DNA from: a virus
DNA: 64,000 nucleotides
Virus record (IMG/VR): IMGVR_UViG_3300031857_022279
Strand: one strand, 5' to 3'
A program made the position numbers and the translations under genes. Positions 5,412-58,773 of this stretch are shown in pieces (position 1 is the stretch's first letter; every line of letters begins with the position of its first letter). The notes under the pieces were generated by a model. That model had not been told where the DNA came from and made no database searches. It saw only the letters and a list, made by a program, of their open reading frames with translations.

Positions 5412-5834
5412 ATGAAACATCTTAAAAAGTTCAATGAATCTAAATATGATATAGAGTTGTTTGAAGAAATTCTTCAATACGTTAATGATCTATCTTTAGA
5501 TTTTGTAGATTTAGGTTTAGAATGTCAAGTCAAGAAATCTTCACTTCCAGGCTCTGTTTCACCAGAATTAAATCTAAATAGAAGAGCTATTTTACCTTAT
5601 ACAATCTTGGTGGAAATCATTGATACTAGTTATGGATTTTCAATAAATCGAGATGAATTTAATTCTATAGTAAAAGCTATCAAAGACTACGTTGAATCTC
5701 AAGGATGTAACTTTTTTGTCTCAAGATACGATGAGCATGAAAACTACTACCTAAATGATATAGGTTATACTACCTTTGATGATTATTTGAAAGAACAAGG
5801 AAACTTCTATGGTTTTGAAATTAGAATATTCTAA
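5412..5834 (+). CDS. Hypothetical protein with an N-terminal capsid-targeting-like peptide
   Basis: Starts MKHLKKFNES; TAATATATA at 5397-5405. Confidence 0.75.
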   Translation: MKHLKKFNESKYDIELFEEILQYVNDLSLDFVDLGLECQVKKSSLPGSVSPELNLNRRAILPYTILVEIIDTSYGFSINRDEFNSIVKAIKDYVESQGCNFFVSRYDEHENYYLNDIGYTTFDDYLKEQGNFYGFEIRIF

Positions 5835-6085
5835 TTACAAGTATCACACTCTTCAGAGTCATTTTCCTGTTCTGTATCAAAATCAAATCCTAGATTCACA
5901 AGTTCGGCCATTACTCCATCTATCATTGACAAGTCAGCTCCATTTTCTTTCATAAACATTTCGAAGTTAGAGGGTGATATCATTTCACCTGCAGCTCTTT
6001 TAGCTTGAAGTTTTGGTAGTAGATCATTTGCAATATCCACTGCTAGATCAAAATCAACCATTTCATTAAATCTTTTTATTCTCAT
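5831..6085 (-). CDS. Small acidic hypothetical protein with a capsid-targeting-like peptide
   Basis: Preferred start 6085 (MRIKRFNEMV), with ATGA coupling to the upstream stop at 6082-6084. Confidence 0.7.
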   Translation of the reverse strand: MRIKRFNEMVDFDLAVDIANDLLPKLQAKRAAGEMISPSNFEMFMKENGADLSMIDGVMAELVNLGFDFDTEQENDSEECDTCN

Positions 6086-6504
6086 TTTGTTATTTTTATT
6101 TTTATACCAGATGTTATAAAGTTCCACGAATCTAATTTCATGTGTATATCTCCCATTGAAGCTGAAAATCCTAATTTTCTAAATCTTACCATGTAGGGTA
6201 TTAATTTGTCTTTAATTTTATTTGTAAGAAAGTGAGCGGCGTCTCTATCGACTAGACTATCAGTCTGACCTATAGTTCTAATGTCTATGTGTGCTTCAAA
6301 TATCTTGCCTCTATAAGGATGTAATGTATTTAATCTAGAAGTCAAAGGTCCGGTCATCTCACTTGTAGATTTGACATCCTCTAAATTCAAATCATCAACA
6401 ATATCACGATATAAATCTTTGATATCATTTAACTCATCTTCGGCAAATGCCAAATCATTTTTTTCCTGACTTTCAAATGATTCATATTTTTTTATAAACT
6501 TCAT
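6082..6504 (-). CDS. Hypothetical protein with a capsid-targeting-like peptide
   Basis: Preferred start 6504 (MKFIKKYESFE), preceded by TTATATATACACT. Confidence 0.7.
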   Translation of the reverse strand: MKFIKKYESFESQEKNDLAFAEDELNDIKDLYRDIVDDLNLEDVKSTSEMTGPLTSRLNTLHPYRGKIFEAHIDIRTIGQTDSLVDRDAAHFLTNKIKDKLIPYMVRFRKLGFSASMGDIHMKLDSWNFITSGIKIKITK

Positions 6505-6527
6505 AGTGTATATATAAAATAATTTCA

Positions 6528-6535
6528 TATATTTG
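6528..6535 (+). promoter_or_regulatory. Bacteroidota-type -7 promoter element
   Basis: TATATTTG lies 6 nt before the uvsE ATG; no clear -33 TTTG was found. Confidence 0.55.
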
Positions 6536-6541
6536 TAATTA

Positions 6542-7465: not shown

Positions 7466-7475
7466 ATACGATACA

Positions 7476-7894: not shown

Positions 7895-7974
7895 GTTTTG
7901 TATTTTTTACAAATATAGTGAAAATAAACTTTGTTTCGAATTTTTGATATAAATAACTAAAAATAAATTATATT

Positions 7975-8328: not shown

Positions 8329-8345
8329 TTAAAAAAGTTAAAAAC

Positions 8346-8918: not shown

Positions 8919-8922
8919 TTTT

Positions 8923-8974: not shown

Positions 8975-9514
8975 ATGGGTAAAATAAAGAAATTCTTAGA
9001 TTATATAACTGGATATACTAGTTATCAAAGTAAACTTAATAGAATGGTAAACAGAACTCGCGAGTACCAAGCTGGTCCTCAAGTAACTGGTAATGGTCAA
9101 ATGACCGCTGATGAGATTTTGGAAACTTTTTCAATGATTAAGGACTATCTTACTCTCCTAAGTGATACAGCTGGTGTTCAAGTAATCTGGCCAAGATATA
9201 AAAAAAATCCGACAGCTCTTTTGCAAGGCTTAGGGTTGTTTCAATTCGAAACCAATTACTTATCACATACAATCACTAGTTTAAACAATTTTATCATTCA
9301 TGCTCAACTCAAAATATCAAAAGATGTTGATATGAAACAATTTCAGTTAGATTTTGAATCTTGTAAATCACAATTAAAGGCTGAGGATTTTATTCTCGAA
9401 TGGCACAAACCAGAAAATCCGTATCACGTTCAGGAATTAATTGTTAGACATATTTCATGTCCAACATTTGATCAACTGTCAAAGACGGCTAAATTTACTC
9501 GTCGTTTTGCCTAA
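8975..9514 (+). CDS. Hypothetical protein
   Basis: Preferred start 8975 (MGKIKKFLDY), 5 nt after TAATATATA at 8961-8969. Confidence 0.7.
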   Translation: MGKIKKFLDYITGYTSYQSKLNRMVNRTREYQAGPQVTGNGQMTADEILETFSMIKDYLTLLSDTAGVQVIWPRYKKNPTALLQGLGLFQFETNYLSHTITSLNNFIIHAQLKISKDVDMKQFQLDFESCKSQLKAEDFILEWHKPENPYHVQELIVRHISCPTFDQLSKTAKFTRRFA

Positions 9515-9554: not shown

Positions 9555-9908
9555 TTACTTAATTCTTTTCTTAATCTCAGACTTTATTTCAGAACATTTT
9601 TCATATTCTTCTAAAGACTCGTATTCTTTAATCATGTCTTTCAACTGATCTGAGTCGCTAAGTTTTAGTCTTAATTTGAATCTTACTTGATTTAAATCAT
9701 TTAAGTCATCACAATAAGAATCTATTATTTTTCCTATAACAAACTTATCGAACTTAGACGTTTCTATAAACTCAGTCCAAGTTTCAATCTCATTATCTTT
9801 TAAAAATGTTACGATTACATTTACGCAATCATCAACTCTATTTTGAGTATTTTCATTTTTTTGAAAGCTAAATAGTTCGTTAAAGTTTGCGAATTTTTTT
9901 AAAGACAT
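9555..9908 (-). CDS. Hypothetical protein with a C-terminal UvrB/UvrC-motif-like helix
   Basis: Starts MSLKKFANFNE; ends LKDMIKEYESLEEYEKCSEIK; TAATATATA 4 nt upstream. Confidence 0.7.
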   Translation of the reverse strand: MSLKKFANFNELFSFQKNENTQNRVDDCVNVIVTFLKDNEIETWTEFIETSKFDKFVIGKIIDSYCDDLNDLNQVRFKLRLKLSDSDQLKDMIKEYESLEEYEKCSEIKSEIKKRIK

Positions 9909-11886: not shown

Positions 11887-12552
11887 TTACCACAAATTCA
11901 TCTTTTGATATACATCTTTCCACTCATTCTCAATCTGTGGTCTATCTTGCTCATTTTGTAGATGATTGATTATACCAACAAGATTACTGTTAAAATCAAA
12001 AAACTTAATATTGTCTCCCATATCATCAACTTTGTAAATCTCACAATTAAGGCGATTTGACATATTCACCAAAAGTCCATCTATATTGATTTTATCATCC
12101 ACTCTTTTCATAATTGCCTTTGGTTCCATTTTTCTGAACTCAATAAATACACTATCATCTGAGTCGTAGTAAAAATATTTTTGAATTGCCTTTTCAACTA
12201 ATTCACTAGACCACTCTTTGTGAGTAGTATTATTTACTATCTCATAGTATTTATTCTCTGATGTTATGTTAACAAAAAGTTTTGCTCCTAACTTATTACA
12301 GAAATTCAAGAGCATATTTTTCTGAAAGTGATCTCTATCGGTTAAGATGTTACCCATTTTCGACTCGGGCTTGAATTTCTTTTCAATAATTACTTTAACG
12401 GAATCATTATCATATATTATGACATCTAAATCTACTAAGTAGTGCCAATTTTCTAAAAAACCACCAACTTTTTTACTTCTGTGACCATTTGAGAAAGGTG
12501 TCCCACCACCATATAGTCTCGACTGTGCTTCTAGAATTGAAAATCTCTTCAT
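11887..12552 (-). CDS. Hypothetical protein
   Basis: 221 aa; TAATATATA 4 nt upstream (plus-strand 12557-12565); starts MKRFSILE. Confidence 0.75.
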   Translation of the reverse strand: MKRFSILEAQSRLYGGGTPFSNGHRSKKVGGFLENWHYLVDLDVIIYDNDSVKVIIEKKFKPESKMGNILTDRDHFQKNMLLNFCNKLGAKLFVNITSENKYYEIVNNTTHKEWSSELVEKAIQKYFYYDSDDSVFIEFRKMEPKAIMKRVDDKINIDGLLVNMSNRLNCEIYKVDDMGDNIKFFDFNSNLVGIINHLQNEQDRPQIENEWKDVYQKMNLW

Positions 12553-12555
12553 ATC

Positions 12556-12801
12556 CTATATATTATTTAAATTTTGTGGTGGTTCATTACCATATTCTTT
12601 AATTCCTTCAATTAGTTCCGAATTTTTACAAGTTATCCGTTCTTCAACGCACTTACCATCTGCGAATTTGAACCCATCGATGAAAGATGTTATCGAAATT
12701 GATTTATTATAATCTTTAAATCTAAAGAGATTACCATCTATGTAAAGTGCCTCACATTCATCACCACCGTCTGAGAAATCAACAATAGTAAATCTTTTCA
12801 T
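12556..12801 (-). CDS. Small hypothetical protein
   Basis: 81 aa; TTATATATAATCT precedes the ATG. Confidence 0.65.
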   Translation of the reverse strand: MKRFTIVDFSDGGDECEALYIDGNLFRFKDYNKSISITSFIDGFKFADGKCVEERITCKNSELIEGIKEYGNEPPQNLNNI

Positions 12802-14995: not shown

Positions 14996-16678
14996 ATGAA
15001 ATGGATTAAACCTAGAAATAGATTTGTAAATGAAGAGGCAAAACTTAGAGATGTAATTCTCCCAAAACAAGCTGAAGTAGTTGGTAAAACTTGGGGAGAG
15101 TCTTTTCTTGATTTAGAAGAAATCGAAGCAACTGAAAACATTAAACAAGGTAAATGGAAACTATCTGAAGAAGATAAAATCGAAGTTTTAGGTAAATTCT
15201 TTCAGGTAGATTTAAAATCTATTTATAATTCATTTGAATCACTTCCTGATAAATTTGCTGAAGTTTTTAATGAGTCAATAGACACTTCTTTAATAAAAGA
15301 AGATAAAGATAAATTCGAGAAAATATTAGATAACTTTAATATTAAAAAGCCATCAATTAATCAAATCGGTGTTTTGACAGATCCAGTATTTAGAAAGATA
15401 TCAGTTAGTGAAACACTTGCTTCTGAAATAATTGTAAGAGATGAAACTGGAAGACCTATAATGGGTGAAGATGGAAGACCACAAAAAGTTGGTAAAGAAC
15501 CTGGTGAAATCGTTTATTCAAAAAACTTAGTCAATATCAACGGGTTTGTAGAAGATTTTAATAGATGTTTTTCAGAATTTAAAATTGACAGCTCACTTTT
15601 TTCAAGAGGTGAAATTCAACGATTAATCAGTAGTTCAAAAGAAGATTTTGGAGGTGATAGATATGCAGTTGAAGTAGACCTTTACTCGAGAGATATGTTT
15701 TTGTCTATTCAACACAAAGCAAAAGATATATTGAATATCTCAATATCAAGATTTTATTCTTCTTGTCAACATTTGTATGGTGGTGGCTATAGAAGTCAAT
15801 TATTAGGAAATGTATTTGATCCAAACACAGTTCCAGCTTTTATAATTTTTGATACTCCTATTCATAATAACAGTGGCGTTTTGATTTCTGAACAATTGCC
15901 TCTTTGTAGAATGATGGTCAGAAACATCGAAAGATTTGATGATTCTAAATCTAAGAGTCCTAAAATATTTTTTGACAGAGCTTATCCAGATAGAATGGAA
16001 GAAATAATGGGTAAAATTATAGAAAAATATAGTGAGAATAAAGAAAATTTTGATTCTGGTGATGGTAACTACCTATTCACTCCTGATCTACCAACAGATC
16101 TAAAATTAAGAGAGCCTTATATGGATAGACTCGGTGTTCAAAGAGGCTACTATATTGGAGTAAATGCTAAGACGTTAAATTTCGGTGGCGATATTGATTG
16201 GTCTCAAACTAAAATTTCACCAAAAGCAAATATTGAAGAAGTAGTAATTGAGACTACTAATTTACCAGATAATTTCTTTAAAATACCACTTAAACCAAAT
16301 TGGATTAAATTCAAGTTTATAAAAATTAATAGTCTTGAACCGTTCAAAAAGATAGTCTCTGATTCTTTTGCGTTTGAGAAATGCTTGATCAGTGAAAAGT
16401 CTATTAAAGATTTACAGAAAATAAATAAGAATATAAAGAAACTACAATTTACCGCTTGTGAACTTCACAAAGTTGAACTAAAGAAGTTTGCGAATCTAGA
16501 GGAATTACAGCTTATTTATTCTATTGATCCAGAAGAATTAGAGAAGTTTATTGAAGGTGTTAATTTCAATAAGCTGATTATATCTGGTGATTTAGTTTCA
16601 GATTCTAAGAACAAGGAACTAATTCAAAATCTAAAAAAACAAAATAAAATCGTAGAGGTAAGAGGACCAGTTATATGA
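14996..16678 (+). CDS. Large hypothetical protein with an SSC...R...FDRAY domain and an LRR-like C-terminus
   Basis: 560 aa; RFYSSCQHL, LCRMMVR and IFFDRAYP motifs; Leu/Ile-periodic C-terminal region. Confidence 0.8.
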   Translation: MKWIKPRNRFVNEEAKLRDVILPKQAEVVGKTWGESFLDLEEIEATENIKQGKWKLSEEDKIEVLGKFFQVDLKSIYNSFESLPDKFAEVFNESIDTSLIKEDKDKFEKILDNFNIKKPSINQIGVLTDPVFRKISVSETLASEIIVRDETGRPIMGEDGRPQKVGKEPGEIVYSKNLVNINGFVEDFNRCFSEFKIDSSLFSRGEIQRLISSSKEDFGGDRYAVEVDLYSRDMFLSIQHKAKDILNISISRFYSSCQHLYGGGYRSQLLGNVFDPNTVPAFIIFDTPIHNNSGVLISEQLPLCRMMVRNIERFDDSKSKSPKIFFDRAYPDRMEEIMGKIIEKYSENKENFDSGDGNYLFTPDLPTDLKLREPYMDRLGVQRGYYIGVNAKTLNFGGDIDWSQTKISPKANIEEVVIETTNLPDNFFKIPLKPNWIKFKFIKINSLEPFKKIVSDSFAFEKCLISEKSIKDLQKINKNIKKLQFTACELHKVELKKFANLEELQLIYSIDPEELEKFIEGVNFNKLIISGDLVSDSKNKELIQNLKKQNKIVEVRGPVI

Positions 16679-18309
16679 AAAATTTAAAATATATTAAACT
16701 TTTTGAGGCATTTGAGTCCTCTAAGATTAGCAAGACTTTAGCTTTTATTAACAAGAGTTCAAGACAGACATTTATTGAAAAGTTGAATAATCTTGCAAAG
16801 TCGATAGATTTTCCAGTTTCTGAACTATCTGATAAGTTTTTACAGTATTTGCCTTTTAACAAGGCACTTGAATTAAATGCTAATATAGAAGACATTCCTT
16901 GTACTGCAACAAGTAAAGGTGAGTTTTCAGATTCAGGTATAGATGGTGAAAAGTGTGAATCTGGCATGATAAAAAGAAAGTGGGGAAGAAGCATAAGAAC
17001 AGTTGGTTGTCCGAATTGTCACGGTACTGGTATTGAGCCTAAAACTAATTTTCCTATTAAGTGGGTTAAGTTTTGGTTTGATAAAGACGGTGACTATGTT
17101 CAGACAAGTGTTACTGATGGGAAAGTCAGACCTCAATCGGATACTGTTTCAGATAAACTTTCTCAAAATCTAAGTGACTATGAGGTAGTGAAAGAATTAA
17201 CACTAGACGAACTTAAAAATCTAACAACTGGTGATTATGTTAAAATCACACTTACAGATGGTAGTGGAAGATCAGTAATAGGACGAGTATTCAAATATGA
17301 TAGAAACCTTAGATCAATTTATATCATACAAAATTTTTGTTCTGGTAGTGAGCCAGATTATAGTAGTGCTTGGAAAAAATTCGGTAGACTTAGCTGGGTT
17401 ATAGAATCTGGTAGTGAGTATACGGGTACCCCACTTTTACTTAAGCCCAGAGAGATAGAAAAAGATGAACGACCTAATCCATATACATGGAACGCACTAC
17501 TTGGTAGAAATAATGCAGTTGAATCAAATTTAGATATGAAGAGTAAACTATCTAAGGCTCATTTTGCAATAGTTCTTGATTATTTAGAACTGTCTCAGTC
17601 AGAATTTATAAAAAGAACTGATATACAAACAAAAAGAAAAGAGCAGACTACTGGTGCACTAGCACTTCAAAGTGATGAAGAAATTAGAAAGCAAAATATA
17701 AATAGGTATATTGAAGAAATAAACAAACGTGTTCAATTCTCTTCTGATTTTTCAAATGTTAAAAATTTAATATCTAGATTATTTGGACTAGGTAAATTCG
17801 GATATTATGTTCTAAGAGGTAGACACTTTAGTGAATTCGATAGTATAATTACATATATGTTCAGATTTCTGAAATCTGGAGATGATCAGCAAGAATTCTA
17901 CTATGAGAGAATCGTTGATAGCTTAAAACCACGTATAAAGTCTAATATTGAATTTAATAAAGAATCTGATGACGTTATGAAGTCAGTTTTTGCAAGTCAA
18001 CCAGATTATATTAAACCACTTCAGTCAAAATTTGAAGAATTAAACGCTGCAATTTACAATAGATTTAAAAGTTTTAATCTTGAAAGTATTGAAGATATCG
18101 AAATATTTTTTCAGAAAATGAAATCTCTTAGAAGTCTTTGGGGAAATTCTGAAAGATTTGATAATTTAAAAAATACAGTCTACTATCCAATTGAGAGCAT
18201 GTCAGATAAATGGAGATTTGAGAGATATCTTTCACAAATTGGAGATTCACAAGTGGATTCAATCATTGAAGATATTGATAGGTTTATTTCAGTTGTTAAT
18301 AAAATTTAA
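16675..18309 (+). CDS. Large hypothetical protein with a CxxCxGxG zinc-finger-like motif
   Basis: 544 aa; ATGA-coupled to the upstream gene; starts MKNLKYIKLFEAFE; contains CPNCHGTG. Confidence 0.8.
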   Translation: MKNLKYIKLFEAFESSKISKTLAFINKSSRQTFIEKLNNLAKSIDFPVSELSDKFLQYLPFNKALELNANIEDIPCTATSKGEFSDSGIDGEKCESGMIKRKWGRSIRTVGCPNCHGTGIEPKTNFPIKWVKFWFDKDGDYVQTSVTDGKVRPQSDTVSDKLSQNLSDYEVVKELTLDELKNLTTGDYVKITLTDGSGRSVIGRVFKYDRNLRSIYIIQNFCSGSEPDYSSAWKKFGRLSWVIESGSEYTGTPLLLKPREIEKDERPNPYTWNALLGRNNAVESNLDMKSKLSKAHFAIVLDYLELSQSEFIKRTDIQTKRKEQTTGALALQSDEEIRKQNINRYIEEINKRVQFSSDFSNVKNLISRLFGLGKFGYYVLRGRHFSEFDSIITYMFRFLKSGDDQQEFYYERIVDSLKPRIKSNIEFNKESDDVMKSVFASQPDYIKPLQSKFEELNAAIYNRFKSFNLESIEDIEIFFQKMKSLRSLWGNSERFDNLKNTVYYPIESMSDKWRFERYLSQIGDSQVDSIIEDIDRFISVVNKI

Positions 18310-20336: not shown

Positions 20337-20519
20337 TAATTATATATTAAGAAATTACTATTTAAATAATTTAAATATTTTAGCGACTAGTCTATCAAGG
20401 GATTGACTAAATCTACAAAAAATTCGAGTTTTTTTAATCAATATATAAAATACAATCAAAATTTAAATAATTCAAACACATCAACAGAATTATTAAATAA
20501 AAAAAAATCAATTTCAAAA

Positions 20520-22790
20520 ATGAAAAAGTATATTCTATTTCTACTAACATTTTTATCATCACTTGGTGTTTATTCACAGGAAAGATTTGATCAAAATGTC
20601 TCTCAAAGAGTAATTGTTGTTCCTCAACCGGGTCAACAAAGAAACGCTGAAAAATTGTTCAAAGACAATAAAGCAAAAGTTATAAAAAAATGGGATGAAC
20701 TTGGTTGGTACCTTACTGAGCTACCTCCAGGACTTGCAAAAAAACAATTTGAAGATAAATGTCGGTCTGAAAATTCAATCATTAGTAGAATATATCAAGA
20801 CGAAGTTATGGAATATAATAGAGAATATATTCCTAACGACTCACTATTCAATGCATCTTGGCATCTAAGACAACTAAACGATAAAGATATAGATGCTGAT
20901 GAAGCTTGGGATTTAATTAATAATATAAACGGGTATGTTACAGTCGCGGTGTTTGATGGTGGATTTGAAACTACACACGAAGACTTAATAGGTTGTTTTA
21001 ATAATCCCTGGAATGCTGTTACAAATACTCCTGGAAATGCATTTGTAAATGATTTTGATAGGCACGGTGTTGCTTGTTGCGGTACAATAGCCGCTAAGGT
21101 AAATAATCAAAAGGGTGTTGCGGGTGTTGGTGGTAATAAAGTACAGGCACAACCAATTAATATAATGAGTAGTGTTTCAAGCACTGGTAGTTTTTCAACA
21201 ACATCCTCAATTCAGATTAATGCGATAAATGCTGCTATCGCAAATCCAACTTGTGTGGCAATATCCATGTCTTATGGTGGTACTAGTTTTAGCCAGGCAC
21301 TAAGTGACGCTTTTACTGCTGCTAGAACTACTGCAAGAGGTGGTAAGGGTATAATGATATTTGCGTCAACTGGAAATAATGGTTCTAATACGGCAGCTCA
21401 ATATCCCGCTCAATATCCAGCTGTATGGGGTGTTGGTTCAACAACCTCATCTGATTTACGATCATCCTTCTCAAACTATGGACCTATTGTTGATATATCA
21501 GCACCTGGGTCAGGTATTCAGTCTACTGATAGAAGTGGCGCGGTTGGGTACAATGCAACAAACTATGCATCAGTAAGTGGAACATCTTTTAGTTGTCCTA
21601 TCACTGCTGGTGTGGCTGCGATGCTTGCTTTTAAAAATCCAAATTTAACAGCTGTGGAATTATTCACAATTCTTTCTTCGACTTCTGAAAAAGTAGGTGG
21701 GTATGTTTACTCAAATGATCCAGCTTACCCTTATTCAACAAGATGTGTTGAGATTGGTTATGGTAGAATTAATGCTAAACTTGCTTTACAGGCAACTCCT
21801 AGTCCAGGTGGTGGAGGAACAACACAGCAACACAATTTAACAATTACGAATTTGTCTGTATCGCCAACATCAATAAATGTTGGCCAATCATTAAATATTA
21901 GTTGTGCTCAAAACACAAGTACATCAACTCTTACTCAAGTTAACAGTATTCTTCAATATAGATTTTCTACTGATAATGTTTGGGGAAATACTGACGATGT
22001 GATTATTGGTAGTGATACAACTACACTTGGTGGGGGTATTGCAACGGGTGGAGAGAATACAACTTATATTATTCCAAACTCAGTCGGTACAAGATATATA
22101 CTTGCTAAAGCTAACTTTAATGAAACTATTAGTGAGTCGAGTCTTACTGATAACGTTTCTAGTGTCTCTATTCAAGTATCTAATCCAATATCAACCAATA
22201 CAGACTTATCAATTCAGCTTGTGAGTCCAAATTCACCTTTTATGACTTCTTCAACGGCAACTGCCGTGTCGATGCAGTGGAAAGTAACGAATACCGGACA
22301 AACAACTATTACGAGCTTCAGATGGGGAAGAGGATGGGTTAATTGTCCAACTACACTAAGCTGTGAAAGTACAGTAAATTGGACTGGAACTTTATCACCT
22401 GGTCAAAGTGTATTTTTACCGAATGGTGCTAATAGTTATCTTTCAACATCTCTTTGTTTTAGTTCAACGAACTGTGCAGTTCCTGCAGGTGGTACTAACA
22501 CATATAGAGCTAGAATTATAAATGTGAATAATGTAACAGGTGATTCAAATTTATCAAATAATACCGCACTTTGTGTTATTAATAGACCATCAGTAGCAAC
22601 TTCAGTTGCAGAAATTGATGAATCGAACGTAGATCATTTAGATGTTTTTAACCTTCAAAATTTGTCGGAAAAACCAAAAAAGTTTAAAAAAGAGTCTCAG
22701 TTAAATTTACAACCTGGGTTTTATGCGATACATACATATCTAAAAGATGGTGGTGTGGAAATTAAAAAAATACTTGTAGTATCTGAATAA
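20520..22790 (+). CDS. Secreted subtilisin-like (S8) serine protease with CARDB/Ig-like domains and a T9SS-like C-terminal domain
   Basis: Preferred start 20520 with signal MKKYILFLLTFLSSLGVYS|Q; catalytic VAVFDGG (D), HGVACCG (H), STGN (oxyanion N), GTSFSCP (S); ends LNLQPGFYAIH...KKILVVSE. Confidence 0.92.
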   Translation: MKKYILFLLTFLSSLGVYSQERFDQNVSQRVIVVPQPGQQRNAEKLFKDNKAKVIKKWDELGWYLTELPPGLAKKQFEDKCRSENSIISRIYQDEVMEYNREYIPNDSLFNASWHLRQLNDKDIDADEAWDLINNINGYVTVAVFDGGFETTHEDLIGCFNNPWNAVTNTPGNAFVNDFDRHGVACCGTIAAKVNNQKGVAGVGGNKVQAQPINIMSSVSSTGSFSTTSSIQINAINAAIANPTCVAISMSYGGTSFSQALSDAFTAARTTARGGKGIMIFASTGNNGSNTAAQYPAQYPAVWGVGSTTSSDLRSSFSNYGPIVDISAPGSGIQSTDRSGAVGYNATNYASVSGTSFSCPITAGVAAMLAFKNPNLTAVELFTILSSTSEKVGGYVYSNDPAYPYSTRCVEIGYGRINAKLALQATPSPGGGGTTQQHNLTITNLSVSPTSINVGQSLNISCAQNTSTSTLTQVNSILQYRFSTDNVWGNTDDVIIGSDTTTLGGGIATGGENTTYIIPNSVGTRYILAKANFNETISESSLTDNVSSVSIQVSNPISTNTDLSIQLVSPNSPFMTSSTATAVSMQWKVTNTGQTTITSFRWGRGWVNCPTTLSCESTVNWTGTLSPGQSVFLPNGANSYLSTSLCFSSTNCAVPAGGTNTYRARIINVNNVTGDSNLSNNTALCVINRPSVATSVAEIDESNVDHLDVFNLQNLSEKPKKFKKESQLNLQPGFYAIHTYLKDGGVEIKKILVVSE

Positions 22791-26834: not shown

Positions 26835-27612
26835 TTGATCCTAGTGAGGCCAGAAACATCTCACTTTCTTTTTCTCTTCTTTTTACTAATCCTGGAAACT
26901 TCTTACTTATTCTAAATTCTTTTATACTGTCTCCAGCAGCTCTATATTCTGACTTTTTCAGATTATCAGCAACTTTTGAATTTCTTAGTCCACTAACACC
27001 TGAGTTGAACGCGAGTGATACGAGTGAATCAAACATACTTTGTGTAACTGGAACGACAACCCCTTGTGACTCCCAGTCTCTAAACATTCTTCTCACACCA
27101 TCTGCTGCAACTTTTAAGTCTTGTTTTAGCAAACTTTCAGCTTCTTCTTTAGAAATTTCTTGGCCTAACTTATATTTTGAATCACCTACTCTTTCAGCAT
27201 GTCCGTATCCAACAGTTATCATACCATCACCAATTTGATATGCTTTAAGTTTTAATTTCTCTTCATTTTTAATGTGATTCCATCCTTCATCTGATAAAGT
27301 TAACTCTTTTGCATTTTTGAATTGACTTTCTTGAACTACCTCAACTGCAACCTGTTTTGTCTCATCATCAGTTTTTGAGTTATTAATAATTTGAACAACA
27401 TTAGTAATTGTATTAAAAGCTAATAGTGAACCTATAGCATATTTAATTATCCTTCTTTTAGATGACTTAGAGAGTCCTTTTATTTTCTCAAGTACATTGT
27501 TCCAAATAGATTTTATATCTACTGATTCATTTATAGAGTAGTCGATATACTCTATTATTTGTTTTACTTTTAGTTCTTCGTTATATCTTTCGAAGCTTGA
27601 TAAATGATGCAT
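26824..27612 (-). CDS. GH24 lysozyme with an N-terminal extension and a TM segment
   Basis: IKNEEKLKLKAY..GDGMITVGYGH, TQSMFDSLVSLAFNSG and GLVKRREKE motifs; TM IIKYAIGSLLAFNTITNVVQII. Confidence 0.9.
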   Translation of the reverse strand: MHHLSSFERYNEELKVKQIIEYIDYSINESVDIKSIWNNVLEKIKGLSKSSKRRIIKYAIGSLLAFNTITNVVQIINNSKTDDETKQVAVEVVQESQFKNAKELTLSDEGWNHIKNEEKLKLKAYQIGDGMITVGYGHAERVGDSKYKLGQEISKEEAESLLKQDLKVAADGVRRMFRDWESQGVVVPVTQSMFDSLVSLAFNSGVSGLRNSKVADNLKKSEYRAAGDSIKEFRISKKFPGLVKRREKESEMFLASLGSINL

Positions 27613-36400: not shown

Positions 36401-36534
36401 ATGGTAGTAAAGGTGTTGTTATTTTACGTGTTTTAACTTCTCAAAATAGTTCGGGAACTGGCACCTATACAACAACAACTGATGGTCTATACACAATTTT
36501 CACATTTACTGGCGATGGCCAGTTTATACCCTGA
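30493..36534 (+). CDS. Collagen-like tail fibre/adhesin (2013 aa): Gly-X-Y repeats, Cys-rich IIGG beta-repeats, C1q-like domain, C-terminal Gly-rich domain
   Basis: GTG start after TAATATATA (30464-30472); long GPQGPT/GxQGxT tracts; C1q-like AFSAY...[24 protein letters not shown]; [11 protein letters not shown]...GSKGVVILR terminus. Confidence 0.88.
31657..31908 (+). repeat. 84-nt tandem repeat, three copies, in frame (28 codons)
   Basis: Copies start at 31657, 31741 and 31825; the first two are nearly identical and the third has diverged. Confidence 0.9.
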
Positions 36535-36561
36535 TAAAATAGATAAATAAATAAATAGAAT

Positions 36562-40929: not shown

Positions 40930-40945
40930 AAAATAAATATTAATT

Positions 40946-41185
40946 ATGACTTATAGTATTTTAGAAAGAAGAGAAGAAACTTATCAATCTGAGGCTCAGA
41001 TTAGCGAGACTGAGACTATTATTATGGATCAAACAACTGTTTTCACAACCGTTCAGTATGACTTTGATGGTACAATAGTGACAGTCGAAATTCCACACTT
41101 TATGCCAGCAGATGAGGCATATATAACTTTAGGTATAGAAAATAGAGCAATAACAGAACAAAGAAAACTCGGGCTTATTCCATAA
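40946..41185 (+). CDS. Small fibre-associated protein
   Basis: 79 aa ORF between the fibre genes and the beta-helix genes; its stop overlaps the next ATG. Confidence 0.7.
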   Translation: MTYSILERREETYQSEAQISETETIIMDQTTVFTTVQYDFDGTIVTVEIPHFMPADEAYITLGIENRAITEQRKLGLIP

Positions 41186-42756
41186 TGGCAACTATAACTA
41201 TAAGTAATACAGGTGGAAACTGGAATTCTACTTCTACTTGGGTAGGAGGAGTCGTTCCTACAGTAGCGGATGATGTGGTAGCTACTGCAACTTCCGGAAA
41301 TCTTACTGTGACTGCGACTGCTGCGGCTTTGAGTATCAACTTCACCAATTACGTTGGGACTTTCGTAGTCAATTCTGGAGTTACTCTTACTATTGGCAAC
41401 GGCACAACAAATACTGGAGGCACTTTTACTATGGTAGCTGGAATGAATGTTGGTGCGACTAGTACTGGAACTCTCTCTTTTGCAGCGACAGCAACTTTAA
41501 ACTCAGGAGGAAAAACCTGGCCAGGTAATATAACATTAATTGTCAGTCCTAATGTAGGTGGTCAAACTAGAACATTCACTTTAGGTAGTCCCTGGTCAGT
41601 CGATGGAAACCTATCAATAACTTTTGCTGCAACTTCTCAGTTTGTGACCCTAAATTCAAATTCGATGACTGTTCGTGGTAATTTCACCATGGGAACAGCT
41701 GCTGCTGTTCATAATTCTGGTTTTACTGGTACTACTAATTTGATATTAGGAACCACGACAACCCAGACTGTAACAACTAATATATCCGCGGGAATAGCAT
41801 TCGTCGATATTTTAGTTCCTGTTACTTTCAATTCGAGTGGTACTATAATCATCACTACTCCTTCCTCCAAGTTGCGTTTTGGCGCATTGACATGGACAGC
41901 TGGTATTGTAACAACTACTGGAGCCACGCTTTACAATGTAGGAAATATTACACTCACTACCGGAGGAATGACCTGGGATTGTGATTGGATTCTTCAAGGT
42001 CAAGGTAGAACTTTTACACTAGTAAGTGATTTTAATGTATCAAGTCTAGGATCTTTAACAACTCGTCAAACACAAAATATGACATTTAATGGAAGTAATA
42101 TCAATCTAAATTGTAATTATACACAAGTAGTAGTTACTATAGTTGGTAATTTGATTGGTACTACAGTGATGAATTTACTCGGAAATTCTACAATATCACA
42201 ATCTGCTGGCCTTTCATTTCGACTTCCAACTATTATAAACTCAACAGGCACAGTCACATTTACATCAAATTTTAGTCACGGTGCATCACTAACATATACT
42301 GCCGGCACATTTTCAATGTCAAACTCGTTGACTTGGACTAATGTAGCCACTGCCACATATACTTTAAATGCTCCAAATTTTAATTTTCCAAATTTTATAT
42401 CTACCACCAACGTAACATTCGCAGGATCAGAAGGTTGTAATTTCTATTCATATACAGTGACAACTGCGGGAGTAACTAACACACTTCAAATAAATGAGAC
42501 TTATACAATCCTCTCTGCAATTACTGTGACCGGGACACTCGCATCAAGAGTATCTTTTGTATCTTCTTCTGCTAATACTAATGCCATATTAACTGTCTTA
42601 CAAGGTGCTTCTATGGATGTAGGATATGCAAACGCAACAGATATTGACTCGTCTCTTGGTCAGACTATTTGGAGTTACAGAGGAACTTTACTTAGAAGTA
42701 CTAACTGGCAACAACTTCCAGTTCAGCCAAAAACAGTCGCTAACTTCAATATATAA
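41185..42756 (+). CDS. Thr/Gly/Asn-rich beta-helix virion protein (paralog 1)
   Basis: GGNWNSTSTWVGGVVPTVADDV N-terminus; C-terminal block shared with the next ORF. Confidence 0.8.
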   Translation: MATITISNTGGNWNSTSTWVGGVVPTVADDVVATATSGNLTVTATAAALSINFTNYVGTFVVNSGVTLTIGNGTTNTGGTFTMVAGMNVGATSTGTLSFAATATLNSGGKTWPGNITLIVSPNVGGQTRTFTLGSPWSVDGNLSITFAATSQFVTLNSNSMTVRGNFTMGTAAAVHNSGFTGTTNLILGTTTTQTVTTNISAGIAFVDILVPVTFNSSGTIIITTPSSKLRFGALTWTAGIVTTTGATLYNVGNITLTTGGMTWDCDWILQGQGRTFTLVSDFNVSSLGSLTTRQTQNMTFNGSNINLNCNYTQVVVTIVGNLIGTTVMNLLGNSTISQSAGLSFRLPTIINSTGTVTFTSNFSHGASLTYTAGTFSMSNSLTWTNVATATYTLNAPNFNFPNFISTTNVTFAGSEGCNFYSYTVTTAGVTNTLQINETYTILSAITVTGTLASRVSFVSSSANTNAILTVLQGASMDVGYANATDIDSSLGQTIWSYRGTLLRSTNWQQLPVQPKTVANFNI

Positions 42757-42759
42757 ATT

Positions 42760-44286
42760 ATGGCTACCTATTATTTTAGAAGTACTGGAACAAACTGGGG
42801 AACTGCTGGTGACTGGAGTGCTACACCGTCTCCAACTTATTCAGCTGGAGCTGTACCAACCACGGCTGATAATGCAGTTTTTGAAGCAGCTAGTGCTAAC
42901 TGTATAATCAATACTGGTGCTACACGCAACTGTGTGAATCTCACTTGTACAAGCTATGTCGGAACTCTTACCTTCAACACCAACTTAGCGGTCACTGGTA
43001 ACGTAGCACTTGGTTCGTCAGCTATGAGTATGACCGGATCTTCTACTCTTGCTCTTACGGTACCGGGTTCAACTTTGTCTCTATCGTCTGCAGGATGTAC
43101 TTGTTCGGTTCCGATGCAGATTTTAAAAGCCTCTGGTGCTTTAACCGTAACTTGGGGAAGCAATTGGACTCAATCAGGATCGTTTACAATGACTGGAACA
43201 TCATGGATTTGGAATGGTAACACAGTTACTTTTAAAAATTCTGTTGCTTGGAATGTCTCAAATCTTTCTGGTACTACTGCTATTATTCTCGCTCCTGACA
43301 TTTCAACGACTATGAACATAACAAGTACTGGAAGTCCTGTATGGGGATTATCCTCAGTAACAATAAACGGTGCGGGTACAGTAAATTTAACAGTATCTTT
43401 CTTTTTTTCCGGCACATTTACTTGGACCGCTGGATCTGTTACTCACACCGGTACTATTACTTTTAACCCTGGAACTAGTACTATGAATACTTCAGGAATG
43501 TCATTTCAAAACGGACAAAATAGTACCTCTGCTACAAGCGCTGTAGTTCTTACATCAGACCTTACATTCACAGGAGATTACGCATATAACAGATCTGCAA
43601 CTAGCTTCAACCCGGCTGGTCGAACCGTGTTTGTTGGTGGTAATTTGACGATTGGTGTTGGTGTAATTAATATCAACACAGTTCTCGGAGCAGCTACTAT
43701 AGTTATGAACGGAACTGGTACTATCAGCGGATCTGCTCCGAATGCAATGACCGTGCCTTTAACTATAAGCACATCTGGGACTATCACTTTTTCAGGAAAC
43801 ATTAACTGGTTGAGAACACTCACTTTTACTTCAGGTACTATAGTCTCGAATGCTACAATAACTTGTAACAGTGCTAGTACATTTACTCTGAATGCTCCTG
43901 GTTTCTCTTTTGCAACTTTCAGCACGAGTGCTAACTCAACTTTCACTGGATCTGAAGGATGCACTTTTGTGACTTTCACATCACAGACTGCTGGAACAAC
44001 ACACACATTCCAGTCTACTGACACATACACAATTACTTCTGCTTTAAACTTGCTTGGTACAGCTGCCTCTGCACTTACTTTTAGATCAAGTTCTGCTGGA
44101 AGTTTGGCAACTGTCACGATACCATATGGGGCTAGTTTAGATGTGGGTCACGTTACTGCAACTGATATCAACTCTTCAAATGGAAGAACAATTTGGGTTT
44201 ATAAAGGAACTATAGGAGCTGGAACTCTTAACTGGCAACAATTACCAACAGTTCCGAAAACAGTTGGTGTAGCTTGGGTTAGATAA
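42760..44286 (+). CDS. Thr/Gly/Ser-rich beta-helix virion protein (paralog 2)
   Basis: TNWGTAGDW...GAVPTTADNA; GSEGC.F, ATDI.SS.G.TIW.Y.GT and NWQQLP..PKTV shared with paralog 1. Confidence 0.8.
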   Translation: MATYYFRSTGTNWGTAGDWSATPSPTYSAGAVPTTADNAVFEAASANCIINTGATRNCVNLTCTSYVGTLTFNTNLAVTGNVALGSSAMSMTGSSTLALTVPGSTLSLSSAGCTCSVPMQILKASGALTVTWGSNWTQSGSFTMTGTSWIWNGNTVTFKNSVAWNVSNLSGTTAIILAPDISTTMNITSTGSPVWGLSSVTINGAGTVNLTVSFFFSGTFTWTAGSVTHTGTITFNPGTSTMNTSGMSFQNGQNSTSATSAVVLTSDLTFTGDYAYNRSATSFNPAGRTVFVGGNLTIGVGVININTVLGAATIVMNGTGTISGSAPNAMTVPLTISTSGTITFSGNINWLRTLTFTSGTIVSNATITCNSASTFTLNAPGFSFATFSTSANSTFTGSEGCTFVTFTSQTAGTTHTFQSTDTYTITSALNLLGTAASALTFRSSSAGSLATVTIPYGASLDVGHVTATDINSSNGRTIWVYKGTIGAGTLNWQQLPTVPKTVGVAWVR

Positions 44287-49109: not shown

Positions 49110-49313
49110 ATGAAAAAAGTACTTTTCTTAACTTCACTGATAATTTCAATTACATCTTGTGATTACAATGAAGGTGTACCTGTAATTGTTAATAAGCAAC
49201 AATCATTTATTCCAGGTAAATGTCTCTATACTTATGAAGGATTTGGTCGAGAAGAAACCTTTGATGACGATTGTAATAAATATCAAGTTGGAGATACTCT
49301 TAGAGGTCAGTAA
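49110..49313 (+). CDS. Small lipoprotein
   Basis: MKKVLFLTSLIISITSC lipobox; ends YQVGDTL. Confidence 0.7.
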   Translation: MKKVLFLTSLIISITSCDYNEGVPVIVNKQQSFIPGKCLYTYEGFGREETFDDDCNKYQVGDTLRGQ

Positions 49314-49845
49314 AATTGTCCTTTGAGTCTAAAAATTTTAAATCACTAGGTGTGACTTTTATTCCGTCAAAGTGATTAAAAAACCGACAAAGATCCTCAA
49401 GACTTTCTCTTGTGAGAGCAAATACTGTATTACTTGGATCCATTTTTGAATGATACGAAGTATATTGATAAGGCTCTACAATATTAGGTGATTTTATATT
49501 AAACCCTGAAGCTATAAAATTACCAAGTGTGATCTCGACATTTAAGTGAAAGTCTTTTTCTTCAGCATTATGAATCGGTCCTAAATCAATTTCAAGTGTA
49601 TCTGGAATACCGTCTATATCAAAATCGCGGTCATATGTAATTTGATAAACAGCATCTGACATAATATTTCCAAGTTTGTATCTACAAGAAATATTTGTTG
49701 ACATGCCAGTTTTTGGATCTATCAACATTCCGTTAATATCTGTGATATCACCACTTATAATTGTAAGATATTTAGGAGTGATATTTCTTATATCATATTC
49801 GAAAATATCAGTTAGTGCTTCATTGAATCTTCTTATTTTGACCAT
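49300..49845 (-). CDS. Hypothetical protein with a capsid-targeting-like peptide
   Basis: MVKIRRFNEA; TAATATATA 4 nt upstream (plus-strand 49850-49858). Confidence 0.75.
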   Translation of the reverse strand: MVKIRRFNEALTDIFEYDIRNITPKYLTIISGDITDINGMLIDPKTGMSTNISCRYKLGNIMSDAVYQITYDRDFDIDGIPDTLEIDLGPIHNAEEKDFHLNVEITLGNFIASGFNIKSPNIVEPYQYTSYHSKMDPSNTVFALTRESLEDLCRFFNHFDGIKVTPSDLKFLDSKDNFTDL

Positions 49846-52202: not shown

Positions 52203-52826
52203 TTACTTACTTAGAAGTTTAATTAGATCTTCGGTGATTTTGGTAATTAATTTTTTACCAGGTTCTATCTCAACATTTGGAATGTTTTTAATACTAGAGA
52301 ACTCTTCAGCCCCACCTACTTCAATTGATTCAATAAGATTTGACATTTCAGCACTATCTTTATATTGGTTCAAATAAAAGGTCTTCAATTCTAAGACAAA
52401 CTTTGCCATATCAAAACCTTTCTTATTATTATACTTAACCATTTGAAGCTCATTATCTTGTTTTTCAACAAGTATATACCAAATAGAATTTTTTGAAATT
52501 TTTACATTTTCTAAGAAATTATAGGCCTTTGAAGCTTTAACTTTTTTTGGAAATTTTGCAACTTTACCGAAAAAATTTACATTAGATTCATTAGCCTCAG
52601 GATCATTTTCAGAGTCTGATGGTAATTCAATATTTTGGTCTTGTGGTATCAAATTTTTTCTTGATGGCATTTTTTGAATCTTAGAAGATTTATATGGCAA
52701 ATTTGGATTAGCAGGTCTATCTGAATCTGTCATTGGTTGAGCACTTGGTGAAACTTCTTTAAGTTCCTTTTCGCCTTTCATTTCCGTGAATTTCTTAAAT
52801 CCGGATATCTTTTTATTATCTGCCAT
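52203..52826 (-). CDS. Hypothetical protein
   Basis: 207 aa; N-terminal FKKFTE; TAATATATA upstream. Confidence 0.75.
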   Translation of the reverse strand: MADNKKISGFKKFTEMKGEKELKEVSPSAQPMTDSDRPANPNLPYKSSKIQKMPSRKNLIPQDQNIELPSDSENDPEANESNVNFFGKVAKFPKKVKASKAYNFLENVKISKNSIWYILVEKQDNELQMVKYNNKKGFDMAKFVLELKTFYLNQYKDSAEMSNLIESIEVGGAEEFSSIKNIPNVEIEPGKKLITKITEDLIKLLSK

Positions 52827-55368: not shown

Positions 55369-55381
55369 AATATATACCACT

Positions 55382-56104: not shown

Positions 56105-56643
56105 TCCATAAGTTCATAAACCTCATTTGCCGTAAATTCAGGATCAGTTATTTTGAGGTCATAATCCTTAAAGTTTAAGAAATCAAGCTCATCAGCATCT
56201 AATCTTCTTTTAATAGAATCATTTTGATCTTTTCTAAAAGAAAGTCTTTGCTCTCTTACTTTTCTATCTATATCAAGATAAACAACAAAACACTTTTTTC
56301 TATCTGACTCTTCTATTTGTGATAATTCACCAGGTGTCATAATGAAAACCTGAGCACTAGTAAATTCTTCTTTTGTTATTCCGTAATACCACTTCTGAGG
56401 TTCTTTATTTTGCGGAGTGACCATAAATGTTTGGTGACATAAAAACTTACTGTCGGTTAGTAGACTTTCAAATTTAGAATCGTCTACAAAATTATAGGTG
56501 ACATTCTGAGTCTCATTAATTCTCATTGGTCTTGTGGTTGTCTTAATGCAAGGTTTTAGACCCTTTTCTACCAATTTTCGAAGTAGGTGATCTTTTCCTG
56601 CTCCAGAAGATCCGAGTATTATTACTTTCTCTTGTTTATTCAA
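56101..56643 (-). CDS. gmk: Guanylate kinase-like protein
   Basis: P-loop ILGSSGAGKD, TTTRPMR.NE, YNFV and WYYG motifs. Confidence 0.88.
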   Translation of the reverse strand: MNKQEKVIILGSSGAGKDHLLRKLVEKGLKPCIKTTTRPMRINETQNVTYNFVDDSKFESLLTDSKFLCHQTFMVTPQNKEPQKWYYGITKEEFTSAQVFIMTPGELSQIEESDRKKCFVVYLDIDRKVREQRLSFRKDQNDSIKRRLDADELDFLNFKDYDLKITDPEFTANEVYELMD

Positions 56644-56687
56644 AATAAATATAGTTTACATGGTATATTTATTTTGTGAAAAAATGT

Positions 56688-57521
56688 TTATTTTTGAGAT
56701 TTTATTATATCGGTTATTTCAGATTTAATCTTACCGAGTTCAGTATATTCAAACTCTTTTGGAAATTTATTTTCCTCTTTTTTTACTCCAATATAATCTT
56801 CTCTAAACATAACTTGAGCGATATGTTTTTTATTTAAATGAATTTCAAAATCTGAACCAACTTGCTTTATAGTGCAGTCCAGTGATTTTATATGTGATTT
56901 GATAGTATCTTGAAATTTTGAAATATCTACCGCTTCTTTTTTACTTTTCTTAGAAACATCAAAAGTCTTTCCCTCTTTGACCTTTGTTACTTTAGTAGTG
57001 ACATCTTTTTTCTCAAAGTCACTAAAATTCATTACTTTACCAGAAGGCTTTTTATCTTTTAAAAGTTCTTTTAAGGTTTTAATATTAAGTGGTTTGACTC
57101 TTGATTTTTTAGTAATCACGTTAGGGTCACTTTCTTTTCTTGTTTTATTTTGACCAGGTGCTGCGATTTTTTGAAACACTCTGTTTGCACCACTTGGGTT
57201 GTATGGAACTGCAATATCTCCACTGCCTTCTCTTCCTCCACCTGTTATCCATGCTGTACCAGTTAAAGCACCTGGAAAATGTGACGGTGTTGAAGATGCT
57301 ACTCCACCCATACCAGCGGTTGTTGCATTTGCAAGAGCTACTCCAGCACTACCAACACCTACACTCGAAGCACCGGCCGAACCTGCTGGTCCTCCTGTAG
57401 CTGAAGTATTTTCTAATAGACTTTCCTTCTCTTGAATAAGATTTTTAATTTGGTTAATTTCTATTTCAGAATTTGTCTTTTTCAAAAGATTATAAAGTTC
57501 GTATAGTGAAAGTTCTTCCAT
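56688..57521 (-). CDS. Hypothetical protein with a Gly/Ala/Ser-rich segment
   Basis: LLENTSATGG...AGMGGVAS...GSGDI, shared with ORF 267..863; TAATATATA upstream. Confidence 0.75.
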   Translation of the reverse strand: MEELSLYELYNLLKKTNSEIEINQIKNLIQEKESLLENTSATGGPAGSAGASSVGVGSAGVALANATTAGMGGVASSTPSHFPGALTGTAWITGGGREGSGDIAVPYNPSGANRVFQKIAAPGQNKTRKESDPNVITKKSRVKPLNIKTLKELLKDKKPSGKVMNFSDFEKKDVTTKVTKVKEGKTFDVSKKSKKEAVDISKFQDTIKSHIKSLDCTIKQVGSDFEIHLNKKHIAQVMFREDYIGVKKEENKFPKEFEYTELGKIKSEITDIIKSQK

Positions 57522-57581
57522 ACCAGTCTTAATTTTTATTATATATTAAAACATCACTACAATAATTTAATATTAATAAAG

Positions 57582-58151
57582 ATGAATAGCCTAAAGAGTC
57601 TGGAGTTACAAAGACTTATTAAAGAATTACAATTTGTTGAATCAGACTATATCTATCAATCTGAAGTAGTTAGACAATCTAATCAGTACTTTCTTGAGTC
57701 TGTAGATTCACTTTTAAATGACTATCCAGACTTGAAGAGAATCTGGACCGAAAAAAATACCAAGCAGTCTGAGGTAAATATTCAAGATTTACCGACTGAA
57801 ATTGAAAAGACAAAATTGAATGTTGATACAAAGGTAAAAAAGATATACCGAGAGATTGTAAAATCAACTCATCCTGATAAAATTAAAAACTCAAAGCTTA
57901 ATGAACTTTATCTTGAAGCAACGTTCGCATATGAAACTAATGATATTGTTACTCTTTACAAAGTTTGCTCTGAACTAATGATAGATTTTAAATTTGATGA
58001 TTCAGAAATTGAAACTATTAAAAGTAGAATAAATGAAATAAAAAGTCAGATAAATTTCTTAGAATCAACTTATACGTTTAAATGGTTGAAGTCATCTGAG
58101 GTTGAGAAAACTAAAGTGGTACTTAGATTTATTGAAGAGAGACTTAAATAA
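57582..58151 (+). CDS. J-domain (HPD) co-chaperone-like protein
   Basis: KVKKIYREIVKSTHPDK followed by ...AYE, flanked by coiled-coil segments. Confidence 0.75.
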   Translation: MNSLKSLELQRLIKELQFVESDYIYQSEVVRQSNQYFLESVDSLLNDYPDLKRIWTEKNTKQSEVNIQDLPTEIEKTKLNVDTKVKKIYREIVKSTHPDKIKNSKLNELYLEATFAYETNDIVTLYKVCSELMIDFKFDDSEIETIKSRINEIKSQINFLESTYTFKWLKSSEVEKTKVVLRFIEERLK

Positions 58152-58773
58152 TATTTACTTTAACCTTTCTTTCGTCTATTATCTTTTGTAAATCCTCTTT
58201 AGTAACATCTCTTTTATAAATATCACTTTGACTTTCTATATTTTGTAAAATCCAATCGTTACCGTTTGAAGTTGTATAGATATAATTTGTATCACCTTCT
58301 ATAATCTCAATTGTCTTGCTTGCTAGTTTATCATAGAATTTTTTTATATCATCATTTACTTTATATAAACTAGCATCTTCCCATTTTTGTATAGTTGAAT
58401 TATAGGTTTGAAAAATAATATATTCTGGATTTTCTAATTCATTTGAGTTGAAGTCATAGAGAAACATAAACCTACAAGGCTTATTTAAAAAGGTTTGAAA
58501 GTCGTCAGTATTTTGGAGAGCAGATTTCTTTAAACCAATTGATGAGAGTGAATTTACAAATTCTATATTATTAGATAACTCATCTAGATTCATTTTTTCT
58601 TTAAATTCATCAGACAAGTTAAGTGTTTTAAATATATCTACATTTTGTGCAGAGATAGAAGATAAAAGAACGTCTCCCCATATGTTTAAGGATTCCATCA
58701 AGTCAATAGTATTAAAAGTCAAGTCTACAACTATAGACTCTTTAAATTGACTAAACTTTTTTATCCATTTCAT
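58144..58773 (-). CDS. Hypothetical protein with a capsid-targeting-like peptide
   Basis: MKWIKKFSQFKES; TAATATATA 4 nt upstream (plus-strand 58778-58786). Confidence 0.75.
   Translation of the reverse strand: MKWIKKFSQFKESIVVDLTFNTIDLMESLNIWGDVLLSSISAQNVDIFKTLNLSDEFKEKMNLDELSNNIEFVNSLSSIGLKKSALQNTDDFQTFLNKPCRFMFLYDFNSNELENPEYIIFQTYNSTIQKWEDASLYKVNDDIKKFYDKLASKTIEIIEGDTNYIYTTSNGNDWILQNIESQSDIYKRDVTKEDLQKIIDERKVKVNII

Follow-up and report, generated by a model that had tools for sequence, protein, structure and literature searches.

The window analyzed here is a 64,000-nucleotide stretch of an uncultivated giant freshwater phage (IMG/VR record IMGVR_UViG_3300031857_022279), in which 14 genes encode proteins that begin with a similar short peptide (hereafter, the tag; Table 1). 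The window has a guanine-plus-cytosine (GC) content of ~31% and encodes GroES and GroEL, a baseplate wedge protein, and very long, probable fiber proteins. The wedge protein is 63–66% identical to those of LR756502 and LR745206 (genomes of 635–642 kb), 31–41% identical to those of LR756504, LR756501/3 (735 kb), and LR756500, and more distantly akin to those of Lak megaphages and of Tenacibaculum, Flavobacterium, Chryseobacterium, and Sphingomonas jumbo phages. We regard the huge-phage records LR756504, LR756501/3, and LR756500 as the Mahaphage group described by Al-Shayeb et al. (2020). The main comparison genome, used in its entirety, was that of the nearest public Mahaphage, LR756502, and large parts of LR756501, LR756500, Lak-A1, pT24, PTm1, and T4 made up the rest of the comparison set.

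The initial annotation of the window described these N-termini as a capsid-targeting-like peptide shared by otherwise unrelated proteins. All 14 of the start sites and N-terminal peptides that it listed are present at their positions, and roughly one window gene in six carries the tag. Five of these starts, those of proteins of 140, 84, 140, 179, and 117 amino acids (aa), are also used in public gene calls on independent metagenome contigs, a match judged by the length and order of open reading frames (ORFs). The tag comprises 8–15 residues of the form M-(K)-x-[IL]-[KR]-[KRT]-[FY]-x-x-[FY]-(x)-x-E, with the motif lying 1–3 residues past the initiating methionine, and occurs in short, medium, and long forms. 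By reading, 10 of the 14 window tags contain an aromatic pair at positions i and i+3, and 12 contain a hydrophobic-x-Glu site that ends at residues 8–15.

The proteins behind the tags are indeed unrelated. An all-against-all BLASTP comparison within the window returned no relation except a weak pair, 5412/6504 (E 1e-4; genes are named here by the position of their start codon). Similarly, the 142 proteins of LR756502 that are tagged when alternative starts are allowed (~15% of its genes) fall into 132 BLAST clusters after removal of the first 20 residues. These unrelated bodies, in the window and in LR756502, rule out paralogy as the source of the shared N-terminus. Pfam and PHROG searches gave no match for 12 of the 14 tagged window proteins (PHROGs were run on 10), and an Atlas search returned viral hypothetical clusters only.

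Table 1. Tagged genes and other features of the window. Scores are those of the tag scoring matrix; distances are in nucleotides (nt) from the motif to the start codon.
Position (strand)	Length (aa)	Feature	Tag score (bits)	Upstream region
2919–4838 (+)		GroES (Cpn10) and GroEL (Cpn60) genes
5412–5834 (+)	140	Short-form tag, F-N-E ending at residue 9; no match in Pfam or PHROG	15.5	WATATATA ends 6 nt before ATG
5831–6085 (−)	84	Tagged; translationally coupled to upstream gene 6082–6504; 84-aa ORF called there on public contigs	9.0	WATATATA absent, no promoter of its own
6082–6504 (−)	140	Strongest tag of the window; aromatic pair at residues 7 and 10	19.7	TTATATATA ends 4 nt before ATG
8975–9514 (+)	179	Possible member	7.1	WATATATA ends 5 nt before ATG
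9555–9908 (−)	117	Tagged	10.6	WATATATA 4 nt before ATG
11887–12552 (−)		Start M-K-R-F-x-I-[LV]-[ED], with I-L-E-A		WATATATA at short spacing
12556–12801 (−)		Start M-K-R-F-x-I-[LV]-[ED]		WATATATA at short spacing
14996–16678 (+)	560	Conserved protein; variant tag ending F-V-N-E-E	weak
16675–18309 (+)	544	Tagged; start overlaps stop of 14996–16678 (operon-internal)	13.9	Promoter motif absent
20403–22790 (+)	795	Subtilase (Peptidase_S8) domain, E 4.5e-35
25089–26834 (+)	581	Tagged	8.5	WATATATA at long spacing, 18–25 nt
26824–27612 (−)	262	Tagged T4-type lysozyme (Pfam Phage_lysozyme, E 4e-26)	4.8 (weak)
27657–27845 (+)	62	Tagged	18.7	WATATATA ends 4 nt before ATG
29072–29881 (+)	269	Tagged OmpA-like protein (Pfam OmpA, E 6e-6); tag ends I-N-E at residue 15	8.3
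30493–44286	2013, 1455, 523, 508	Very long ORFs, probably fiber proteins; GC raised (38–43% vs. ~30%)
49300–49845 (−)	181	Short-form tag	10.4 (orthologue 14.7)
52203–52826 (−)	207	Doubtful member in baseplate gene cluster; motif at residues 10–15	6.6
58144–58773 (−)	209	Tagged; directly downstream of the 1025-aa amidase-domain protein gene	15.9	WATATATA ends 4 nt before ATG
58787–61864 (−)	1025	C-terminal Amidase_2 domain; adjoins baseplate genes; probably a tail-associated cell-wall enzyme
62358–63866 (−)	502	LysM motif; adjoins baseplate genes; probably a tail-associated cell-wall enzyme

A nine-column scoring matrix was built from the claimed peptides and then retrained on LR756502 alone. 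Eight of the 14 window starts score at least 9 bits (5412, 6085, 6504, 9908, 16675, 27657, 49845, and 58773), three lie between 7 and 8.5 bits (8975, 25089, and 29072), and three are weak (14996, 27612, and 52826), compared with two scores of at least 9 bits among 373 other window ATG starts of ORFs of at least 40 codons (binomial P ~1e-8). The strict core [IL]-[KR]-[KRT]-[FY] occurs 13 times in the ~20,000 residues of window proteins, and six of these occurrences lie within four residues of the start methionine. In LR756502, 133 of 965 genes reach at least 10 bits at the annotated start, as do two of 2,551 internal methionines, four of 1,618 off-frame ATG ORFs, and 30 of 19,300 shuffled N-termini (decoy rates of 0.08–0.25%). 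The motif is more than 50-fold enriched at real starts. Of the low-scoring window starts, 27612 and 14996 are rescued by the N-termini of their relatives, while 52826 and 8975 stay doubtful. The N-terminus of 8975 keeps the basic-aromatic core and has no Glu but an Asp at residue 9, and in the orthologue of 52826 (62% identity) Asp replaces Glu and the score falls to 1.3 bits.

The tagged set varies in size and form among the relatives. LR756501 carries the tag on 42 of 656 genes (6.4%; 400 kb covered) and LR756500 on 30 of 633 (4.7%). The tag consensus is specific to each lineage, and that of LR756500, -Y-E-E-F-[IL]-N-E, is nearest to T4. The tagged proteins of LR756502 are small (median 160 aa) and mostly acidic (isoelectric point below 6 in 76%), and a membrane-like segment occurs in one of the 142. 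Pfam domains were recognized in only about a dozen of them and include RNA ligase, NUDIX, methyltransferase, ankyrin, SET, GNAT, HNH, RNase T, 2H/Acb1-like, and PQ-loop domains. The initial annotation also called the tagged set exchangeable. This is not specifically supported, because tagged genes are no less conserved than their neighbors: a homologue in LR756502 exists for seven of 12 tagged genes and for 17 of 64 neighboring ones.

Most tagged genes were also said to share a promoter motif, and the co-occurrence of the tag with this late-type motif was confirmed in both the window and LR756502. WATATATA lies no more than 25 nt upstream of 12 of the 14 tagged window genes, compared with 16 of the 64 untagged ones (Fisher P 4e-5). 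Among LR756502 genes with their own upstream region, it precedes 45 of 53 tagged and 117 of 348 untagged genes (P 1e-12), whereas a host-type TA-n-n-TTTG motif precedes three and 50 of them, respectively. WATATATA is also found 18–26 nt upstream of portal, protease-scaffold, capsid, baseplate, and fiber genes, and is presumably a late promoter comparable to the TATAAATA of T4. The distance between motif and ATG is bimodal across the window, at either 4–8 nt or 18–29 nt. Short spacing is typical of most tagged genes (4 nt at 9908(−), 27657(+), and 58773(−), for example) and long spacing of structural genes. In the window, the motif lies 18–25 nt upstream of 30493(+), 55220(−), and 25089(+). The short spacing would yield leaderless or near-leaderless mRNAs.

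Such spacing invites a reading in which the shared N-terminus is no protein signal, but the product of a translation-initiation constraint (leaderless or short-leader mRNAs, with the A-rich starts of Bacteroidota) or of AT-rich codon bias. In keeping with it, 52 of the 121 genes whose motif ends 4–11 nt before the ATG are tagged, compared with ~10% of motif-less genes, and the tag abounds in residues with AT-rich codons (Lys, Asn, Phe, and Glu). However, synonymous codon choice in the tag equals that in the first 12 codons of untagged genes (AAA/AAG 0.69 vs. 0.71; GAA/GAG 0.68 vs. 0.72), Leu and Ser draw on both of their codon families, and substitutions stay within the residue classes I/L, K/R, and F/Y. 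Because codon usage in the tag is that of ordinary N-termini, selection acts on the peptide. Additionally, AT-rich relatives that encode an S77 protease have next to no tags (none in Lak-A1 at 26% GC, none in pT24 at 29% GC, and two in PTm1), and shuffled N-termini pass at a rate of 0.16%. AT-rich codon bias after the ATG, which the initial annotation had raised, fails to explain the motif and is ruled out by codon usage, shuffled N-termini, and the AT-rich relatives. A constraint on leaderless mRNAs is ruled out as the main cause by the 50 of 142 tagged LR756502 genes (35%) that are operon-internal, starting no more than 5 nt from the upstream stop without a promoter motif and therefore unable to be leaderless. 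The window genes 6085 and 16675 are of the same kind. Conversely, 60 genes have a short-spacing promoter and no tag. We therefore regard an origin in translation or base composition as very unlikely.

The frequent pairing of promoter motif and tag, and the grouping of tagged genes in arrays of small genes (at 0–120 kb of LR756502), could also be explained if the tag were a nonfunctional relic of a common 5′ cassette of promoter and first codons, spread by recombination as genes were acquired. This is extremely unlikely in our assessment, since operon-internal genes are tagged without a promoter, each lineage has a separate consensus, and orthologues at 40–47% identity hold the motif while its sequence changes. 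For example, the tag of the LR756502 orthologue of 9908 differs in sequence yet conforms to the motif (16.9 bits), and the orthologue of the lysozyme 27612 matches more clearly than the window copy (5.4 vs. 4.8 bits). The family of 14996, with 991 homologues, also retains the tag: in the 35 homologues compared, the N-terminus is near-invariant and ends F-[LIV]-x-E-A. Modeled by AlphaFold with these 35 homologues, 14996 has a mean predicted local distance difference test (pLDDT) score of 84.8, and falls below 50 only at residues 1–3 and 5–13. These residues, modeled as disordered, coincide with the tag up to its predicted cut.

A peptide under selection at the extreme N-terminus of unrelated phage proteins has a precedent in the capsid-targeting sequence (CTS) of T4. 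This 10-residue peptide loads foreign proteins into the T4 head (PMC9026906, PMC7697877). Targeting depends on its residues 4 and 7 and processing on residues 8 and 10, Asp at position 10 permits targeting and blocks cleavage, and a few variable proteins of T-even phages also bear CTS-like peptides (PMC9026906). The likeness to this sequence, which was part of the original proposal, held up when the matrix trained on LR756502 tags, with no T4 sequence in its training, was applied to 274 T4 ORFs: ipI, 61.1, ipIII, and ipII ranked as the top four. The probability that all three internal proteins would do so by chance is ~1e-6 (hypergeometric). In the alignment, T4 Lys2, Thr3, and Tyr4 fall on the basic-basic/Thr-aromatic core of the tag, and T4 Phe7 on its second aromatic residue. 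The four positions to which T4 genetics assigns targeting and processing are conserved in the tag. An aromatic-x-x-aromatic pattern is present in 70% of LR756502 tags and 19% of other N-termini, and a hydrophobic-x-Glu site in 90% and 26%, respectively. A stricter search located the site in 121 of the 142 tags, ending mainly at residue 9, 11, or 12, with F, I, Y, or L at P3 and mostly Ser at P1′.

The fourth T4 ORF retrieved, gene 61.1 (NC_000866, 18966–19130 (−)), encodes a hypothetical protein of 54 aa. Its N-terminus is almost identical to the targeting sequence of the internal proteins, and the product may be an unrecognized packaged protein of T4.

A conserved hydrophobic-x-Glu site at the end of the tag would also suit a propeptide that keeps proteins inactive or sets their timing until it is cut by the prohead protease or another protease, such as the S8 subtilase encoded at 20403–22790, with most tagged proteins never entering the head. 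The presence of the subtilase gene in the window and the very large number of tagged species are in line with such a role. Nevertheless, subtilases do not typically cut after Glu, and the basic-aromatic part upstream of the site, needless for mere cleavage, matches the T4 targeting residues. T4-type proteases, moreover, act inside the prohead (PMC9026906), and we consider a propeptide of this sort unlikely.

Machinery that could read a T4-type signal is encoded by the relatives. LR756502 has a head module in T4 order, consisting of a gp20-type portal (PF07230, E 1e-57), an S77 protease-scaffold protein, and gp23 (PF07068, E 4.5e-28). The protease-scaffold protein (225272–227371) has 699 aa, of which the first 140 match Peptidase_S77 at 20–23 bits, below the cut-off; the S77 domain is above the Pfam cut-off in LR756500, PTm1, pT24, and Lak-A1. 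Its scaffold part contains 11 tandem 14-residue repeats, each with an aromatic-[IL]-A-E sequence, the four-residue pattern that ends the T4 tag. LR756501 has ~13 such repeats, those of LR756500 are degenerate, and Lak-A1 has the protease-scaffold fusion with an acidic linker in place of the repeats. No co-variation between tag consensus and scaffold repeat was found across lineages, the same aromatic-[IL]-A-E being present in LR756502 and LR756501 and degenerate in LR756500. The N-terminus of the protease-scaffold protein itself carries a conserved L-I-V-E site, comparable to the L-I-E site that T4 gp21 has close to its own N-terminus.

The tag might instead be an address for another destination or partner, such as a phage-built compartment, tail or baseplate assembly, or the GroEL and GroES encoded by the window. 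Such roles would also suit a linear N-terminal signal that is shared by unrelated, soluble proteins and whose consensus differs by lineage. Against this, the similarity to the T4 CTS is specific enough to retrieve the T4 internal proteins, the matching sites in the scaffold point to the head, and no other receptor candidate was found. An address other than the head therefore seems improbable.

Together, these results suggest that the shared N-terminus is probably a T4-type peptide for capsid targeting and processing, greatly expanded in the Mahaphage clade. By analogy with T4, we infer that the tagged proteins are packaged, cleaved after Glu, and injected. Late in infection, the aromatic pair of the tag, equivalent to T4 Tyr4 and Phe7, would bind it to the scaffold core as the prohead assembles. 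The scaffold-fused, gp21-like protease would then cut the tag after the Glu of its hydrophobic-x-Glu site, and would also cut the repeated aromatic-[IL]-A-E sites of the scaffold. The mature proteins would remain alongside the DNA and pass into the host when it is injected. From the window, this cargo would include the lysozyme, the OmpA-like protein, and the conserved protein 14996 with its possible leucine-rich-repeat region.

Several observations weigh against capsid targeting as the function of the tag. First, the head module (portal, gp23, and S77) was read in LR756502, LR756501, and LR756500, the phage's own lying outside the window, and the S77 match is below the Pfam cut-off in both LR756502 and LR756501 (20–24 bits). 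Second, short-form tags, which end in aromatic-N-E, have no second aromatic residue. Third, the tagged Mahaphage proteins are mostly acidic, whereas T4 internal proteins II and III are basic, and a PQ-loop membrane domain makes one of the tagged proteins of LR756502 an unlikely cargo. Fourth, tags are in excess where the promoter motif lies 4–8 nt from the ATG, a pattern that makes some connection with translation conceivable. Finally, ~140 cargo species in one head would, to our knowledge, be far beyond any studied phage.

Several tagged proteins of the window have features of their own. In the lysozyme 27612, the tag is followed by an extension of ~110 aa and then by the lysozyme domain (residues 115–249), and LR756502 encodes a tagged long lysozyme alongside an untagged lysozyme paralogue of 153 aa. 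The OmpA-like domain family, to which 29072 belongs, binds peptidoglycan. A search of the PDB with the model of 14996 gave weak leucine-rich-repeat matches only, in the C-terminal part, and the N-terminal region was not recognized as any fold. The 14996/16675 gene pair is kept in LR756502. The paralogue family of 25089 has seven copies in LR756502, five of them with tag-like N-termini, and its Atlas clusters are viral only.

Other features of the window lie beside the tagged genes. A spacer of 44 nt separates the divergent genes 27612 and 27657 and contains two WATATATA motifs placed back to back. On public contigs, the gene between GroEL and 5412 is strain-variable and encodes either 161 or 119 aa. 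The adjacent genes 11887–12552 and 12556–12801 may be diverged members of the tagged set that the matrix missed, and the I-L-E-A of the first is kept in its LR756502 orthologue.

A wider proposal follows, which we advance tentatively. Across the Mahaphage clade, 5–15% of genes, or up to ~140 proteins, could encode T4-style tagged cargo, packed into the head and delivered together with the DNA. This cargo might include cell-wall enzymes, possible leucine-rich-repeat, ankyrin, and SET proteins, and nucleotide-cleaving enzymes (2H/Acb1-like and NUDIX) able to disarm host defenses before phage gene expression begins. Anti-defense roles are only suggested, by the few domains that hint at them. Should the tag function as the CTS does in T4, delivery at time zero would account for a considerable share of the "dark" genes of the largest known phages, and the injected proteome of uncultivated phages would be predictable from sequence alone. 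It would also provide a list of candidate host-takeover and anti-defense effectors, as well as natural tag variants for loading proteins into phage heads. A literature search combining the CTS with jumbo, huge, and mega-phages or metagenomes found no paper linking the CTS to huge phages or megaphages.

Three known systems resemble the one proposed here. Encapsulin cargo-loading peptides are likewise short linear peptides that load unrelated enzymes into an HK97-fold shell. They differ in that they usually sit at the C-terminus and no protease removes them, and they serve a shell that involves neither DNA nor injection. The phiKZ-like giants (phiKZ, 201phi2-1, and SPN3US) also package many head-internal proteins with their DNA, SPN3US having ~50 head proteins, and their gp21-related protease also cuts after Glu (PMC5694885). 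However, their cleavage motif is A/S/G-x-E, their propeptides are mostly long (often more than 100 residues) with no shared short tag, and only ~8 SPN3US head proteins are processed.

The closest parallel is the CTS of T4 internal proteins IPI, IPII, and IPIII, together with gp21. In both cases a peptide of ~10 residues lies at the extreme N-terminus of unrelated proteins, contains a basic residue and aromatic residues at i and i+3, and ends in a hydrophobic-x-Glu site. In T4 as in LR756502, LR756501, and LR756500, it accompanies a T4-type portal, a gp23 capsid protein, and an S77 protease. The Mahaphage tag differs in having two or three extra residues (M-K-x-[IL]) ahead of the T4-like part, in its mostly acidic cargo, and in the fusion of the protease to a repeat-bearing scaffold. 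The systems also differ in scale, as T4 has three or four such proteins, whereas the Mahaphage-clade phages would have 30 to ~140. The principle is already known from T4; the literature search returned no clade in which 5–15% of genes are tagged and the protease is fused to a scaffold full of matching sites.

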